Source: Squalus acanthias
Taxonomy: Eukaryota
Assembly: GCA_030390025.1 (NCBI GenBank)
Contig: CM059438.1
Coordinates: forward strand, 33,666,001-33,730,000
Length of the DNA: 64,000 nt
Direction of reading: 5' to 3'
Shown here: positions 1,047-8,373 of the stretch, piece after piece
How the letters are laid out: each line of letters begins with the position of its first letter
Numbering within the stretch: the first letter of the stretch is position 1
Notes under the pieces: model-generated
What the model saw: only the letters and a program-made list of their open reading frames with translations
Database searches by the model: none
What the model was told of the DNA's origin: nothing
Position numbers and translations under genes: made by a program

Positions 1047-2984
1047 AAAATGTTTAACTGGGGAAAAGCCAATTTCAGTGGGATGAGAACAGATCTGGTC
1101 CGGGTAAACTGGAATCAAAGATTGGCAGGCAAAACTGTAATGGAACAATGGGCTGCCTTTAAAGAGGAAATAGTTCAGGTACAGTTGAGGTACATTCCCA
1201 CTAGGGGGAAAGGCAGGGCAACTAAAGTCAGGGATCCCTGGATGATGAAAGGGATAGAGAATAAGATGAAGCAGAAAAAGGGGGCATATGACAGATGTCA
1301 GTTTGCAAATACATCTGAAAATCAGGCTATATATAGAAAGGTCAGAGGAGAAGTGAAAAAGAAAATAAGAGGGGCAAAGAGAGGGTATGAGAATAGAATG
1401 GCAGCCAACATAAAAGGTAATCTAAAAGTCTTCTATAGGCATATAAATAGTAAAAGGTTAGTAAGAGGAGGGGTGGGACCAATTAGTAACGTGGAAGCAG
1501 AGGGTATGGCTGAGGTACGAAATGAGTACTTTGCATCTGTCTTCACCAAGGAAGAAGATGCTGCCATAGACACAGTAAATGAGGAGGCAGTGGAAATACT
1601 TGATAGGATAAAAATTGATAAAGAGGAGGTATTAGAAAGGCTGGCTGTACTTAAAGTAGATAAGTCACCAAGAACGGATGGGATGCATCCTAGGATGCTG
1701 AGGGAATTGAGGGAGGAAATCGAGGAGGTACTGGCCTTAATATTCCAATCCTCCATAGATACGGGGGTGGTGCCAAAGGACTGGAGAATTGCAAATGTTG
1801 CACCATTATTCAAAAAAGGGTGTAAAGATAAATCCAGCAACTACAGGCCAATCAGTTTGACCTCGGTAGTGGGGAAGCTTTTAGATACAGTAATCAGGGA
1901 CAAAATTAACAGTCACTTGGACAAGTGTGGATTAATTAAGGAAAGCCAGCACAGATTTGTTAAAGGCAAATCATGTTTAACTAACTTGACAGAGTTCTTT
2001 GATGAGATAACAGAGAGGTTGATGAAACTAATGCAGTTGACGTAGTGTAGATGGATTTCAAAAAGGCATTCGACAAATTACCACATAGTAGGCTTGCCAG
2101 CAAAGTTGAAGCCCATGGAATAAAAGGGACAGTGGCAGCATGGATATGGAATTGGCTAAGTGATAGGAAACAGAGAGTAGTGGTGTACGGTTGTTTTTCG
2201 AACTGGAGGAAGGTGTACGTACAGTGGTGTTCCCCAGGGGTCAGTTCTAGGACCACTGCTTGATATATATTAATGATTTGGACATGGATGTACAGGGCAC
2301 AATTTCAAAATTTGCAGATGACACAAAACTTGGAAGTATAGTGAACAGTGAGGAGGAGAGTGATAGACTTCAGGAAGACATAGACAGGCTGGTGAAATGG
2401 GCGGACACGTGGCAGATGAAATTTAATGCAGAAAAGTGTGAAGTGATACATTTCGGTCGAAAGAATGAGGAGAGGACATATAAACTAAATGGTACAATCC
2501 TGAAGTGGGTGCATGAACAGAGAGGCCTGGGGGTATGTGTGCACAAATCATTGAAGTTGGCAGGGCAGGTTTAGAAAGCAGTTAAAAAGGCTTACGGGAT
2601 CCTGGGCTTCATGAAGAGAGGTATAGAGTACAAAAGTGTGGAAATTATAATGAACCTGTATAAAACACTGGTTCGGCCCCAACTGGAGTACTGTGTCCAA
2701 TTCTGGGCATCACACTTTAGGAAGGATGTGAAGGCCTTAGAGAGGATGCAAAAAAGATTTATGAGAATGATTACAGGAATGAGGGACTTCAGTTATGTTG
2801 ATAGACTGGAGAAGCTGGGGTTGTTCTCCTTGGAGCAAAGAAGATTGGGAGGAGATTTGATAGAGGTGTTCAAAATCATGAGGGCTCTGGACATTGGCAG
2901 AAGGGTCGGGAACCAGAGGACACAGATTTAAGGTGATTGGCAAAAGAACCGAAGGCGACATAAAATAAAAACTTTTTTACGCAA

Positions 2985-3376
2985 TGTGGTAACACAATAC
3001 AGCTTCCTGTGACTCGAACTTTATTGCATCACTTCCTGTGATTAGTCCAGGATAAATACTGGACTGATCAGTTGGATCCTGGAGAGGCATAGAGTAAGAC
3101 CTCTTTTGTATGTAGCACCTTTTTAGTTGATTAAAGCTTACTTTAAGTTCACCACGCGTAAGGCTCATTCTTACGACAATATTGTCGTAAGAATGAGCCT
3201 TACGCGTGGTGAACTTAAAGTAAGCTTTAATCAACTAAAAAGGTGTTACATACAAAAGAGGTCTTACTCTATGCCTCTCCAGGATCCAACTGATCAGTCC
3301 AGTATTTATCCTGGACTAATCACAGGAAGTGATGCAATAAAGTTCGAGTCACAGGAAGCTGTATTGTGTTACCACA
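2985..3376. repeat. 392-bp near-perfect palindrome made of two inverted LTR copies with an ATAT centre
   Basis: 2985-3178 is the reverse complement of 3183-3376 with one mismatch seen; mirrored identical ORFs 2977-3234(-) and 3127-3399(+). Confidence 0.97.
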
Positions 3377-3395
3377 TTCTCCCCCCCCCAAAAGA

Positions 3396-5317
3396 TTAGG
3401 AGGCCGGGATGCTCCCTCCATTTCGTAGCCGCTGGACGAGGGAGAGCCGCACCCGTTTGGGTTCTCGTAGCGGTAGAGGGCCCCTAGCCCGTTTACCCGC
3501 CGCGGGCCGTGGACCAGAGTCCAAGTGATCCAGCCCGCTCTGTGAGGGGTCAGGACGATCCTGACTGTGTACTGGTGCCCGAACGGGTGTCGGGCAGGGC
3601 TGTGGCAGATCCGTTTCCGAGCGTACGGTACGGGGTGGATCGTGGCTGCGCGTGCGAGCCCCGACGGGCTCATAGTCAGTCTGCCCCAGGTCGGCACGCT
3701 GGAGTGAGGTACCAGCCGGCGTCAGATCCAGATCGTGATGAGAGGCACCTGGCGAGCCCAAAAATGTGCCTGATACAATATCATCCCCTGGTGTCCCTCT
3801 ATGTTTCGGCGGGCAGGGAGCCAGATCCCGCAATGACACGGTAGATTGCCGACCGTCAGGATACCGAATATAGGCGTAGGTAGGGTTGACGTCAGTGAGC
3901 TCAACCTCATCTACCAGGGGGTCATTCTTAGACGCCCGGACATATCTTCGGAGTAGCACTGGTCCCGGTGCAGTCAGCCACGACGGGAGAGATACCCCAT
4001 AGGATGAGCGACGCTGAAATCGGAAGAACCGTTCATGAGGCGTCGTATTTGTGGCGGTCGAAAGGAGGGACCGTGTGGAGTGTAATGCGTCTGGAAGTAC
4101 TGCTTCCCATTGCTGGTTGAGTAGGCCCCGAGATCTCAAAGCCAGACGTACCGCATTCCAGATGATAGCGTTAAAACGCTCGACTTGCCCATTCCCGACC
4201 GGATGATAAGGCGTCGTTTTGCTGGCAGCAATACCCCGTTCCGAGAGATAGGCCTTGAGTTCTCCTGACATAAAAGAAGGGCCTCGATCCGAATGAACAT
4301 AGGATGCCATGCCACAGAAAGCAAATACCTGCTCAAGGCAGCTGATAACCGTGGTCGTCAGCATATTGGGGCAGGGAAAGGCAAACGGAAAACGGGAATA
4401 CTCATCGACCATGGTCAATAGATAAGTGTTGCGAGTTGAAGAGGGCAACGGCCCCTTAAAATCGATGCTAAGCCGTTGCATTGGCTGGGTCGCATGTATG
4501 AGTATACCACCCGAGGGCGGAAAAACTGAGGTTTCAATTCCGCACAGACTCTGCAGTCCGAGCACATCTTCTTTACATCCCCGGTAGAGAATGGGAGATT
4601 TCGGGACCGCACGAAGTGTAGCATGCGAGTAACGCCCGGATGACACAACCCATCATGGATGTCTACGAGCGTAGAGGGTGCCATGGCGGAGCAGAATGCT
4701 CGTGTGAGGGTATCCGGAGCCACATTCTCCTTGCCAGGTCGATAGTGGATGGTGTAACCAAAAGACGCCAATTCCAGCCGCCAAAGCTGGATTTTATTAT
4801 TTTTAATTTTGGTCCGTTTTCGATTATCGAGCATGAAGGCGACCGATCGCTGGTCCGTGATTAAGGTAAAGTGCTGGCGAGCTAGGAGATGACTCCACTT
4901 CCGTACTGCCTCTATGATGGCTGTAGCTTCTTTCTCGACTGGAGGATAATGTAGCTCAGCCCCTTGAAAAGTCCTGGACAAAAATGCCACCGGACGACCT
5001 TCCTGATTCAGAATTACCGAGATCGCCACCTCTGAGGCATCACACTCAACAACAAAAGGAAGACTCTCATCGATGGAGTGAAGAGCCGCTTTCTCCAACT
5101 GTTTTTTCAGGAGGTTAAAGGCTGCAACAGCCGCTGTGTCTAGTGGGAATGTGCTGGCCTTCAGTAGAGGTTGGATTCGGTCCGAGAAGTTAGGAATCCA
5201 TTTAGCATAGTATGCAAACAGGCCGAGGGCCTGGCGCAAGGAGGCCGGATTCTTAGGTGGCGGGAGTTCTTGGAGTGGGCGAAGCCTTTCAGGGTCAGGT
5301 TTAATGATGTTTTCCAT
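3396..5317 (-). pseudogene. Truncated Gypsy pol: probable gag start fused to RT C-terminus, RNase H and integrase; one frameshift near 4515
   Basis: 4415-5317: LGLFAYY, VVECDASEVA, EKEATAI, LITDQRS, and the integrase HHCC region (H-x4-H...C-x2-C). 3396-4646: SIDFKGP, VHSDRG, NGQVERFN (D,D35E). No RT YxDD, protease or gag body present. Confidence 0.9.
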
Positions 5318-5395
5318 GATGGGTGATTCCCTGGATCCTTAGTTCCGAGTTCGTCCAAAAAGTTTGAGTGCGAAGTTTTCCAAAGTTGATTAAAT

Positions 5396-5589
5396 TGTCG
5401 TAAGAATGAGCCTTACGCGTGGTGAACTTAAAGTAAGCTTTAATCAACTAAAAAGGTGCTACATACAAAAGAGGTCTTACTCTATGCCTCTCCAGGATCC
5501 AACTGATCAGTCCAGTATTTATCCTGGACTAATCACAGGAAGTGATGTAATAAAGTTCGAGTCACAGGAAGCTGTATTGTGTTACCACA
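5396..5589 (-). repeat. 5' LTR of the Gypsy-derived element
   Basis: Matches 3183-3376 with two differences seen; TG...CA termini; ATTAAA poly(A)-like signal in element sense. Confidence 0.93.
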
Positions 5590-6596
5590 CGCAACGAGTG
5601 GTTAAGATCTGGAATGCACTGCCTGAAAGGGTGGAGGAGGCAGATTCAATCACGGCTTTCAAAAGGGAGTTGGATAAGTATCTGAAGGAAAGCAATTTGC
5701 AGGGGAAACGGCGGGGGAGTGGGACTAGCTGAAGTGTTCCTGCAGAGAGGCGGCACGGGCTCGGTGGGCCGAATGGCCTCCTTCCGTGCTGTAACCATTC
5801 TATGATTCTACAATTCCAGCATGTGGAGGCTCCAATTCTTTAGCTAAGTTGTGACAGCAGGTCTGATAGCATAAGTAAATTTAAAGGACCAACCATATAC
5901 TGTCAACAACTATGGAACAACTCAGTTTCCAGGTCAGCAAAGAACCAGATGCAGAGCGGCGCCATCTGCTCAAGGACACCTGCTGCTATTATGCACCATA
6001 GGGCTGGCACAGTCAAGGACAGCAGTGGCCTCGAGTCTGCCTCCACCTGCTTCCAGGCATGCTACAAAGGGGACTTATAGAGATGGTGCCAAGGAGCGGT
6101 GCAGAGAGCAACTCTCCTCACAACCACTTCATGCAGCGCCCCCGGTACTTCAACAGCTATCAAAAGGCAGCTCAGGTGCTGGGCTGCTCCATCACTTGCC
6201 TATAGATTCATACCTGCACCTGTCCTTTCCCTTCACGTCACTTCTTAATCACCTTCTCCTTCAGCTTTGACAATGGCTGCTAATAGCTTGAGCTATCTTT
6301 TGAGCCTTTCTAAAGGCTTGCAGATATTTAGTCACCCTATTATGATACTTCCTTTTAATTGACTTCATTCCTTTAAATTTCACTTATGTGTAATTTTCTG
6401 CTTCCTCCCCTAGTTTGCTTCCTACATCAGCCCAAATCTACACTTGAATCTGTGAATAACTATACAAATGGGCTGACATAATTGAGATCTGTTAGTACAT
6501 TATCATCATGTCGCAATTAGCATCAGTTCGTAATCACTTAGAACTGACTTACTGCAGTAGATTAAAATTGGCTCGGATGCCTTTACAAACCGCTAT

Positions 6597-8373
6597 TATA
6601 GAATCATAGGATGGTTACAGCATGGAAGGAGGCTATACGGCCTGTCGAGCCCGTGCCGGCTCTCTGCAAGAAAACTTCAGCTAGTCCCATTCCCCCACCC
6701 TTTCCCTGTAGCCCTGCAAATATTTTTCCTTCAGGTATTTATCCAGTTCACTTTTGAAAGCCACCACTGAATCTGCCTCCTCCACCCTTTCAGGCAGTGC
6801 ATTCCAGATCCTAACCACTCGCTGCGTAAAAAAGTTTTTCCTCATGTCGCCTTTGGTGCTCGTGCCAATCACCTTAACTCTCTGTCCTCTGGTTCTCGAC
6901 CCTTCTGCCAATGGGAACAGTTTCCCTCTATCTACTCTGTCCAGACCCCTCATGATTTTGAACACCTCTCTCAAATCTCCTCTCAACCTTCTCTGCTCTA
7001 AGGAGAACAACCCCAGCTTCTCCAGTCTATCCACGTAGCTAAAGTCCCTCATCCCTCGAACCATTCTTGCCAATCTTTTCTGCACCCTCTCTAAAGCCTT
7101 CACATTCTTCCTAAAGTTCGGTGCCCAAAATTGGACACAATACTCCAGTTGAGGCCGAACCAGTATTTTATAAAGGTTCATCATAACTTCCTTGCTCTTG
7201 TACTCTATGCCTCTATTTATAAAGCCCAGGATCCCATATGCTTTTTTAACCGCTTTCTCAACCTGTCCTGCCACCTTCAACGATTTGTGCACATACACCC
7301 CTAGGTCTCTCTGTTCATGCACCCCCTTTAGAATTGTACCCTTTAGTTTATATTGTCTCTCCTTGTTCTTCCTACCGAAATGTATCACTTCGCACTTTTC
7401 TGCGTTAAATTTCATCTGCCACGTGTCTGCCCATTCCACCAGACTGTCTATGTCCTCTTAAAGTCTATCACTATCCTCCTCACTGTTCACTATACTTCCA
7501 AGTTTTGTGTCATCTGCAAATTTTGAAATTGTGTCCTGTACACCCAAGTCCAAGTCATTAATATATATCAAGAAAAGCAGTGGTCCTAGTACCGACCCCT
7601 GGGGAACACCACTCTATACCTTCCTCCAGTCCGAAAAACAACTGTTCACCACTACACTCTGTTTCCTGTCAATTAGCCAATTTCGTATCCATGCTGCCAC
7701 TGTCCCTTTTATTCCATGGGCTTCAACTTTGCTGGCAAGCCTATTATGTGGCACTTTGTCAAATGCCTTTTGGAAGTCCATGTACACCACATCAACCGCA
7801 TTGGCCTTATCAACCCTCTCTGTTACCTCATCAAAAAACTCAGTCAAGTTAATTAAACACGATTTGCCTTTAACAAATCCGTGCTGGCTTTCCTTAATTA
7901 ATCCACACTTGTCCAAGTGACTGTTAATTTTGTCCTGGATTATCGGTTCTAAAAGCTTCCCCACTATCGAGGTCAAACTGACTGGTCTGTAGTTACTGGG
8001 TTTATCCTTGCATCCTTTTTTGAACAAGGGTGTAACATTTTGAATTCTCGAGTCCTTTGGCACCACCCCCGTATCTAAGGAGGATTGGAAGATTATGGCT
8101 AGCACCTCTGCGATTTCCACCTTAACCTCCCTCAGCATCCTAGGATGCATCCCATCCGGTCCTGGTGACTTATCTACTTTAAGTACAGTCAGCCTTTCTA
8201 GTACCGCCTCTTTATCAATTTTTATCCTATCAAGTATCTCAACTACCTTCTCTTTCACTATGACTTTGGCAGCATCTTCTTACTTAGTAAGGACAGATGC
8301 AAAGTACTTATTTAGTACCTCAACAATGTCCTCTGCCTCCATGCGTAGGTCTCCTTATTGGTCCCTAATTGGC
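6597..8373 (-). mobile_element. CR1 LINE, 3' part (RT and tail) of a host copy split by the CR1 at 8374-12682
   Basis: ORFs 6681-7439 and 7614-8258 are CR1 RT; tail TAGAATCAT at ~6597; sequence continues at 12683. Confidence 0.93.

Follow-up and report, generated by a model that had tools for sequence, protein, structure and literature searches.

We found that the unit at positions 2980 to 5594 of the window (64,000 nucleotides of the Squalus acanthias contig CM059438.1, from 33,666,001 to 33,730,000) is a single dead, broken copy of a high-copy Gypsy retrotransposon that carries an extra, inverted LTR. Rather than a novel type of mobile element, the unit most likely represents a rare accident of copying.

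Sequence comparison within the window revealed three 194-bp LTRs, each TGTGG...GACA, in agreement with the three 194-bp LTRs that a sequence-only reading had noticed (Table 1). A direct LTR pair, TG...CA (LTRs C and B), is present with its primer site and polypurine tract; LTR A is additional. LTR A has one mismatch to B and one to C, and B and C differ at two sites. As that reading had noticed, the same LTR end lies inverted at both termini, giving 194-bp terminal inverted repeats (A and C) that start with TGTGG and are 193/194 identical. Both outer ends are U3, where Ty3/Gypsy integration uses one U3 and one U5 end. The two U5 ends meet as CA-AT/AT-TG with zero overlap, and AT also adjoins LTR C internally (5395-5394), both as described in the earlier reading. 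The insertion target was a CR1 LINE. Since a neighbouring CR1 copy carries the CGCAA bases once and is collinear across the insertion site, the perfect 5-bp duplication claimed for the unit is real; its length matches that of the duplications around single direct-LTR copies of the family. Because both outer ends are exact LTR termini within a real 5-bp duplication, one integrase event likely placed the whole unit.

Table 1. Features of the three-LTR unit, in window coordinates
Feature	Position	Strand	Basis
Left target-site duplication CGCAA	2980..2984	+	Single copy at homologous site of neighbouring CR1
LTR A, extra inverted 194-bp LTR, U3 end outward	2985..3178	+	Sequence comparison
ATAT junction, two AT without overlap (family 5′ LTR then AT)	3179..3182	.	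Unique in genome
LTR B, 3′ LTR of element, 194 bp	3183..3376	-	Polypurine tract precedes on minus strand
Polypurine tract	3377..3390	-	Identical tract precedes family 3′ LTRs
Integrase core (rve) and C-terminal tail	3396..4518	-	Frameshift near 4518 severs upstream frame
gag start codon fused in frame to RT end, RNase H, H2C2 zinc finger	4519..5317	-	ORF and domain search
Junction of 2,034-bp internal deletion, between 12-bp near-identical repeats (gag start, RT end)	5298..5309	-	Comparison with family copies
A plus 11-nt primer-binding site, complementary to LTR positions 141-151 (self-priming signature)	5384..5395	-	Complementarity
LTR C, 5′ LTR of element, U3 end outward, 194 bp	5396..5589	-	Sequence comparison
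Right target-site duplication CGCAA	5590..5594	+	Sequence comparison

The family to which the LTR belongs is an ordinary Gypsy of 4.44 kb (4,441 bp) with direct LTRs. Pattern searches of the assembly returned 4,985 exact U5-end matches and at least 2,226 5′ LTRs, and AT follows the 5′ LTR across the family. A natural intact copy contains one 1,318-aa ORF with Pfam domains in the order gag-protease-RT-RNase H-integrase. Wherever sequence is retained, the three-LTR copy is ~98.6% identical to the family, with the same LTR, primer site, polypurine tract, and 5-bp duplication. The other copies examined were ordinary direct-LTR elements, solo LTRs, tandems, and one nested pair. As the LTR A haplotype is common to 26 of 62 sampled LTRs, a single template for all three LTRs is not demonstrable from sequence. 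At position 42, LTR C has a change that coincides with an older-subfamily allele but lacks the linked change at position 79 (0/62); we read this as a separate mutation or a short conversion.

A Pfam search of the three-LTR copy detected RNase H, H2C2, and rve domains and no RT domain, in agreement with the claim that RNaseH-integrase is kept and the RT core missing. The gag and protease domains are likewise missing, through a 2,034-bp deletion that runs from gag to the end of RT. This deletion is in frame, and a frameshift near 4518 splits the RNase H-H2C2 frame from the integrase-core frame. We infer that deletion and frameshift are damage separate from the inverted-LTR event. The same deletion junction occurs at one other locus, which has two normal direct LTRs. 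A common deleted master for the two copies was rejected, as they share 0 private sites and differ by 29 mismatches. Since the second copy has direct LTRs and no private site in common with the three-LTR copy, the deletion likely recurred. The three-LTR copy carries ~15 private changes in 2,115 bp, similar to other dispersed copies, which argues that it has been stationary since insertion.

The sequence-only reading had offered two origins: (a) two cDNAs joined at unprocessed U5 ends, integrated through two U3 ends, and reduced when one copy collapsed to a solo LTR, or (b) a propagating three-LTR family; it had tied a single junction locus to the former. Searches of the 3.7-Gb assembly with exact, spacer-tolerant, CpG-tolerant, and resection-tolerant patterns detected the head-to-head U5-U5 junction once; these patterns need exact motif matches and cover joins between LTRs. 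The CpG-tolerant pattern gave 13 matches, of which 2 are the three-LTR locus and 11 are lone LTR ends beside host DNA. For resected U5-U5 joins, one pattern found the three-LTR locus alone; the second, whose range leaves out that locus and which thus had no positive control, gave 0 matches. Pattern searches of the assembly also returned no U5-U3 or U3-U3 join within 30 bp and no uncollapsed dimer. For an inverted LTR joined to internal sequence, a check by position of the first 100 of the 4,985 U5 matches gave one opposite-strand cluster, a nested insertion (L170).

We favour, with confidence that is evenly balanced, a reading in which a cDNA with an unprocessed U5 end was joined there, end to end, to a plus-strand strong-stop DNA of LTR length, and the product integrated through two U3 ends. 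The added segment amounts to exactly one LTR and an AT. The account of Ty3 in PMC5371799 describes a second plus-strand strong-stop DNA of the same extent, and dead-end strong-stop strands that build up in particles. The AT would be a 2-nt extension of the cDNA U5 end, with one base templated and the other copied off the primer's final nucleotide. The join could have been made by an RT template jump or by hairpin-like closure within one particle, routes that would be indistinguishable. The resulting molecule would have two U3 ends, and integrase would take U3 twice in one normal step; concerted integration with donors bearing a single U3 end is described in vitro for RSV integrase (PMC3579926). 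RNA from LTR C would end in LTR B, rebuilding ordinary direct LTRs. The transcript likely does not include the inverted LTR, so retrotransposition would not pass it on, and the three-LTR structure would not spread.

The strong-stop route needs no later collapse, an outcome represented by solo LTRs at 5 of ~52 loci in the first 100 U5 matches, and it has no intermediate stage in which a long-armed palindrome with an intact centre must survive. The missing U5-U3 and U3-U3 joins also favour it, weakly given one event, since random whole-cDNA ligation should yield both. Of origin (a), the joining of unprocessed U5 ends and the two-U3 integration fit the sequence; a second full cDNA and its later collapse would be dispensable, since a single step with a strong-stop strand of LTR length accounts for the one inverted LTR. 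Against the strong-stop route, every step is reconstructed, and the Ty3 and RSV data, from other elements, would apply by analogy. A zero-overlap join is also the expectation for blunt ligation. In the in vitro work described in PMC3035444, HIV-1 RT showed no blunt-end extension onto an acceptor at 50 μM dNTP, and its clamp requires C or G in the paired dinucleotide.

The primer site bears on the proposed AT extension. Self-priming is recognized by at least 10 nt just 3′ of the 5′ LTR that are complementary to the LTR, according to the definition in PMC6317226, and the three-LTR copy has an 11-nt complement at offset 1 after the LTR. From this complementarity, the parent family was probably self-primed in the manner of Tf1. 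Since the complement starts at the second base after the LTR, the primer end sits where a 2-nt extension would arise. The Tf1 self-primer is reportedly not removed, so a CA-AT end cannot be taken as given in self-primed elements. Among 12 resolvable metagenome relatives, the LTR complement was at least 10 nt in 6, 8-9 nt in 4, and absent in 2, with differing sequences; AT followed the LTR in 10 of the 12, several of which are the same element from different samples. We also screened these relatives for inverted repeats. Of 80 loci, 57 were long enough and six had arms of at least 60 bp (L144, L165, L163, L100, L166, and L162). Re-examination covered the first five, L166 at less than base-by-base detail. 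L144 was rejected as an inverted-LTR case, as its arms are GC-rich repeats without TG...CA ends, as were L165, L163, and L100, whose arms are part of a dispersed repeat.

A possible, more tentative origin is that blunt joining linked the unprocessed U5 ends of two full-length cDNAs, either before integration or by repair after two-donor U3 integration, and that one arm was later reduced to a solo LTR. Blunt ligation would yield the AT/AT junction directly, two-U3 concerted integration works in the in vitro experiments of PMC3579926, and aberrant HIV proviruses, as characterized in PMC5041404, may have an end linked to additional viral DNA, in one orientation or the other. The family includes solo LTRs whose duplications are intact, and a 4.4-kb palindrome would be pressed to shrink. 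However, this origin needs a second event beyond deletion in the other arm, each found in about one-tenth of sampled loci; the palindrome centre is intact; and the uncollapsed dimers and the other joins are missing from the assembly.

A fold-back artefact, whether in a read or in the assembly, is a very improbable source of the inverted LTR. Perfect palindromes are known to arise as artefacts, and contigs from 4 of 23 public runs gave no cover at 3188-3205, with no joint listed, in a region of palindrome and high-copy repeats and with runs possibly from other individuals. Among the public runs listed, the best share of words was 0.71, and none was RNA. However, LTR A is not a mirror of B: a private change at position 131 of LTR B is missing in A and in 62/62 other LTRs. 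A fold-back would also run past the LTR, rather than end at its last base and then resume collinear CR1 with a 5-bp duplication.

We give equally little credence to an origin by double insertion into one site, or by nested insertion with a subsequent deletion or inversion. Inverted LTR-element tandems in Drosophila are attributed to double insertion (Rover, with an ATATAT junction; PMC5932611), and the nested pair at L170 is on opposite strands. However, double insertion should leave target sequence at the junction, where we found ATAT (4 bp) instead of CGCAA, and ATAT is not favoured among the family's target duplications. The AT after a 3′ LTR requires an unintegrated end, and a later rearrangement would need cuts exactly at two LTR termini. 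Finally, a propagating family (b), or a working inverted-repeat integrase transposon intermediate with Ginger, is largely refuted: although the repeats start with TGTGG, the duplication is 5 bp, RT is lost with integrase sequence retained, and the deletion is in frame and seen at a second locus, the pattern searches found the junction once, the other deleted copy has an ordinary direct-LTR pair and no shared private site, the integrase frame is broken, and the private changes point to immobility.

The locus is a clean natural record, which suggests that insertion by a Gypsy integrase can proceed through two U3 ends in an animal germ line, and it appears to keep the unprocessed U5 end (CA-AT) of a probably self-primed family, of the kind erased in normal insertions. 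The rate would be roughly 1 in 2,200 or more insertions. It is unlikely that a rare but recurrent side route of reverse transcription turns Gypsy, in one step, into an integrase-bearing unit with two identical inverted U3 ends. Such a route would supply the missing chain from Gypsy to Ginger-type elements, with this locus, its RT lost by in-frame deletion, as a precursor snapshot; hairpin and antisense RNA directed at the family might also come from such loci.

A word-matching search of the open-access literature found no naturally occurring element that has three LTRs and a U3 end at both termini. Relative to the ordinary Ty3/Gypsy family, this copy adds an inverted LTR, two U3 outer ends, the deletion, and the frameshift. 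Like the Drosophila tandems such as Rover, described by McGurk and Barbash (2018; PMC5932611) as two whole elements from double insertion with target site at the junction, it has an inverted LTR-to-LTR junction with a short AT palindrome; unlike them, it consists of one element plus one LTR, and its junction differs from the target site. It resembles aberrant retroviral proviruses and two-donor in vitro integration in that a viral end is joined to more viral DNA and two U3 ends are integrated (PMC5041404, PMC3579926), whereas in those proviruses, as described, one end is typically made by the host and the duplications are abnormal (PMC5041404), unlike the normal ends and duplication of this unit. 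DIRS elements share inverted terminal repeats on a retroelement; as outlined in PMC3950715, they use a tyrosine recombinase, whereas the three-LTR copy has a DDE integrase, a target duplication, and no recombinase match.

Ginger offers the closest comparison. As summarized by Bao, Kapitonov, and Jurka (2010; PMC2836005), Ginger1 has TGTNR termini, inverted repeats of 40-270 bp, and a Gypsy-type integrase without RT; the three-LTR copy resembles Ginger1 and Ginger2/Tdd in these respects, its 194-bp repeats falling within that range, and its 5-bp duplication is like those given there for TDD-4 and TDD-5. Unlike Ginger1, it has CGCAA rather than a 4-bp CCGG/CCGT duplication (PMC2836005). The Ginger1 transposase described in that paper is a single protein of 500-800 aa with YPYY, H2C2, DDE, GPY/F, and OTU or Ulp1; here the frame is split, RNase H is present, no OTU or Ulp1 Pfam match was found in the copy, and a scan of the integrase-core frame found no YPY string. 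Ginger2/Tdd is a multi-copy family with shared terminal repeats and separate duplications, whereas this junction is single-copy and the other copies examined are direct. Unlike Ginger, too, the three-LTR copy keeps an internal LTR, primer site, and polypurine tract. Because it is near-identical to RT-bearing Gypsy copies, it is unlikely to group with Ginger in a tree. The same source suggests that the Ginger1 repeats may come from two LTRs flanking integrase in opposite orientation; here, unlike that proposal, both repeats are U3 ends from one insertion, not from a second element inserting upstream (PMC2836005). There is no sign that such a unit moves again. The three-LTR unit is no Ginger transposon, yet its inverted-LTR layout is one that has been put forward as a precursor of Ginger, and the locus shows that such a layout can arise.

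The element at 2980-5594 was found again to carry three 194-bp LTRs with inverted outer ends, a CGCAA duplication and an AT|AT junction, as the sequence-only reading had described. LTR A differs from LTR B at one site and from LTR C at one site. On the minus strand, AT and a primer site follow LTR C, and a polypurine tract precedes LTR B. This arrangement identifies C as the normal 5′ LTR of a minus-strand element and B as its 3′ LTR, with U3 at the TGTGG end. CGCAA lies on both sides of the three-LTR unit; since a neighbouring CR1 copy that aligns to both flanks has these bases only once, CGCAA is a true duplication within a CR1 LINE. The host LINE (1492-5830) and a second CR1 copy (6579-8341) lie head to head and are ~88% identical.

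LTRs of the window element
Feature	Position	Strand	Description
LTR A	2985-3178	+	194 bp; extra, inverted
LTR B	3183-3376	-	194 bp; normal 3′ LTR, preceded by polypurine tract
LTR C	5396-5589	-	194 bp; normal 5′ LTR, followed by AT and primer site

Domain searches also bore out the description of the coding region: the internal region contains RNase H, H2C2 and rve domains, and a Pfam search of it found no RT domain. A stretch of 2,034 bp is missing; 12-bp near-repeats mark its two ends, one where gag begins and the other where RT ends. This deletion is in frame, and a frameshift near 4518 puts the zinc finger and the integrase core in different frames.

Judged from its sequence, the window element is a Gypsy copy by descent. 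It is ~98.6% identical to family copies, and its private sites (15 of 2,115, different from all seven copies compared) represent a load similar to theirs. In the 3.7-Gb genome, the U5 end has 4,985 exact matches, and the U5 end plus primer site has 2,226. Of 20 stretches, picked among the earliest matches on C1 with a deliberate choice of short ones, a script resolved 17 into two-LTR units, all with direct LTRs; the 5-bp duplications around single copies vary in sequence. Full-length copies are ~4,441 bp, and one open frame of 1,324-1,325 codons is intact in 7 of the 17. One natural ORF of the family encodes protease, RT, RNase H and integrase, in Gypsy order. Other arrangements were also seen: a tandem array, with three internal regions and four LTRs, within one 5-bp duplication (L064-L065, G000:C1:562278-575037), with a stop codon common to both units examined; a copy nested inside another in opposite orientation (L170, 406-9374); and a subfamily (L055, L059, L062, L170, L172, L176) in which a polypurine-like tract and the first 40 LTR bp are duplicated ~70 bp upstream of the 3′ LTR.

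We asked if the extra LTR could be an artefact. LTR A is not the mirror image of LTR B, since B has a change found neither in A nor in 62 other sampled LTRs. The unit starts and stops precisely at LTR ends, and the host DNA on either side is collinear. Contigs from four public runs did not cover the junction's far side.

Because the outer ends are exact TG...CA termini flanked by a duplication of family length, they point to one concerted integrase reaction through two U3 ends. RSV integrase performs concerted integration in vitro with single-U3 donors (PMC3579926). The U5 ends of LTRs A and B abut as CA-AT|AT-TG. The most plausible reading of the AT|AT between them is a pair of unprocessed U5 ends: throughout the family AT is the dinucleotide after the 5′ LTR, and 10 of the 12 relatives that could be resolved also have it. 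From the second base after the LTR onward, 11 nt (5384-5394) are complementary to the element's own LTR, pairing with LTR positions 141-151 over an ATTAAA motif, in agreement with a published self-priming criterion (PMC6317226). Such complementarity is a self-priming signature; copying of one base and of the last primer nucleotide would yield the CA-AT end. In six distant metagenome relatives (L092, L101, L106, L108, L128, L163), primer site and LTR are complementary, with sequences that differ but match within each element. A predicted transcript from LTR A over the junction (3125-3236) would form a perfect 54-bp hairpin (-94.8 kcal/mol) and continue into antisense RNA.

The sequence-only reading had raised the possibility of a propagating three-LTR family and proposed a genome check of the junction. 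Run as a pattern search, this check found exact CA-AT|AT-TG at one locus genome-wide, in the window. Searches for U5|U5 joins with intact ends ≤30 bp apart, or with CpG decay allowed, returned only the window locus, and those for trimmed ends found none beyond it; U5-U3 and U3|U3 joins numbered zero in the genome. The scope of these searches is joins of one LTR end to another, as distinct from inverted LTRs fused to internal sequence. Of the 53 clusters formed by the first 100 of the 4,985 U5 matches, 41 are direct pairs and 10 are singles; the other two are a tandem and a nested pair. Nine singles were retrieved, of which five were solo LTRs and the remainder parts of direct elements. The 2,034-bp deletion junction occurs at one further locus (L075, G000:C16, element 3105-5511), a copy with the same in-frame deletion whose two LTRs are direct and which lies in a duplication of its own. 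It shares no private sites with the window copy; from their sequences the two are apparently independent, and the 12-bp repeat appears to be a hotspot for such deletions. In the standard LTR cycle, RNA from LTR C would end in LTR B, and LTR A would thus not pass to progeny. Within the end-to-end join searches there is no sign of a three-LTR family; with one junction locus and all resolved two-LTR copies direct, that proposal was abandoned.

How, then, did LTR A arise? We give about even credence to an origin in which LTR-length plus-strand strong-stop DNA was joined to the U5 end of a cDNA. A template jump or hairpin-like closure within one particle would produce a three-LTR molecule in which both ends are U3. 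Against this route, the Tf1 self-primer is said to remain attached. Also counting against it, in vitro data give poor support for blunt jumps by HIV-1 RT (PMC3035444). In its favour, plus-strand strong-stop DNA of Ty3 begins at the polypurine tract and reaches the U5 end, and dead-end strong-stop strands build up in particles (PMC5371799). As one of two options, the sequence-only reading had instead joined two cDNAs, one later reduced to a solo LTR. Its unprocessed U5 join and two-U3 integration fit the sequence, and blunt ligation of two whole cDNAs accounts well for the zero-overlap join. However, the collapse to a solo LTR is an extra event, shown by about a tenth of loci, and the end-to-end searches found no other cDNA-to-cDNA join in the genome; we consider this route rather doubtful and rank it below a strong-stop partner. 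Double insertion, the origin suggested for a Rover tandem in inverted orientation (PMC5932611), does not agree with the locus, as a target site would remain at the junction, where AT|AT is found instead.

We conclude that the window element is a real, rare and well-preserved retrotransposition accident, not a new mobile family. We found no natural element of the same exact build in the open-access literature, although the supplementary inverted tandems of PMC5932611 may include comparable cases. The termini resemble those of Ginger transposons. However, a Ginger-like identity fails on duplication type, as that of Ginger1 is not the 5-bp CGCAA seen here, on the lack of an intact transposase and on copy number. 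In the Ginger paper, a pair of LTRs that face opposite ways on either side of an integrase is mentioned as one possible source of Ginger1 repeats, and the chain of events is described as unclear (PMC2836005). Should one-step conversions recur and ever give a mobile unit, which we think improbable, they would be directly relevant to how Ginger transposons arose.
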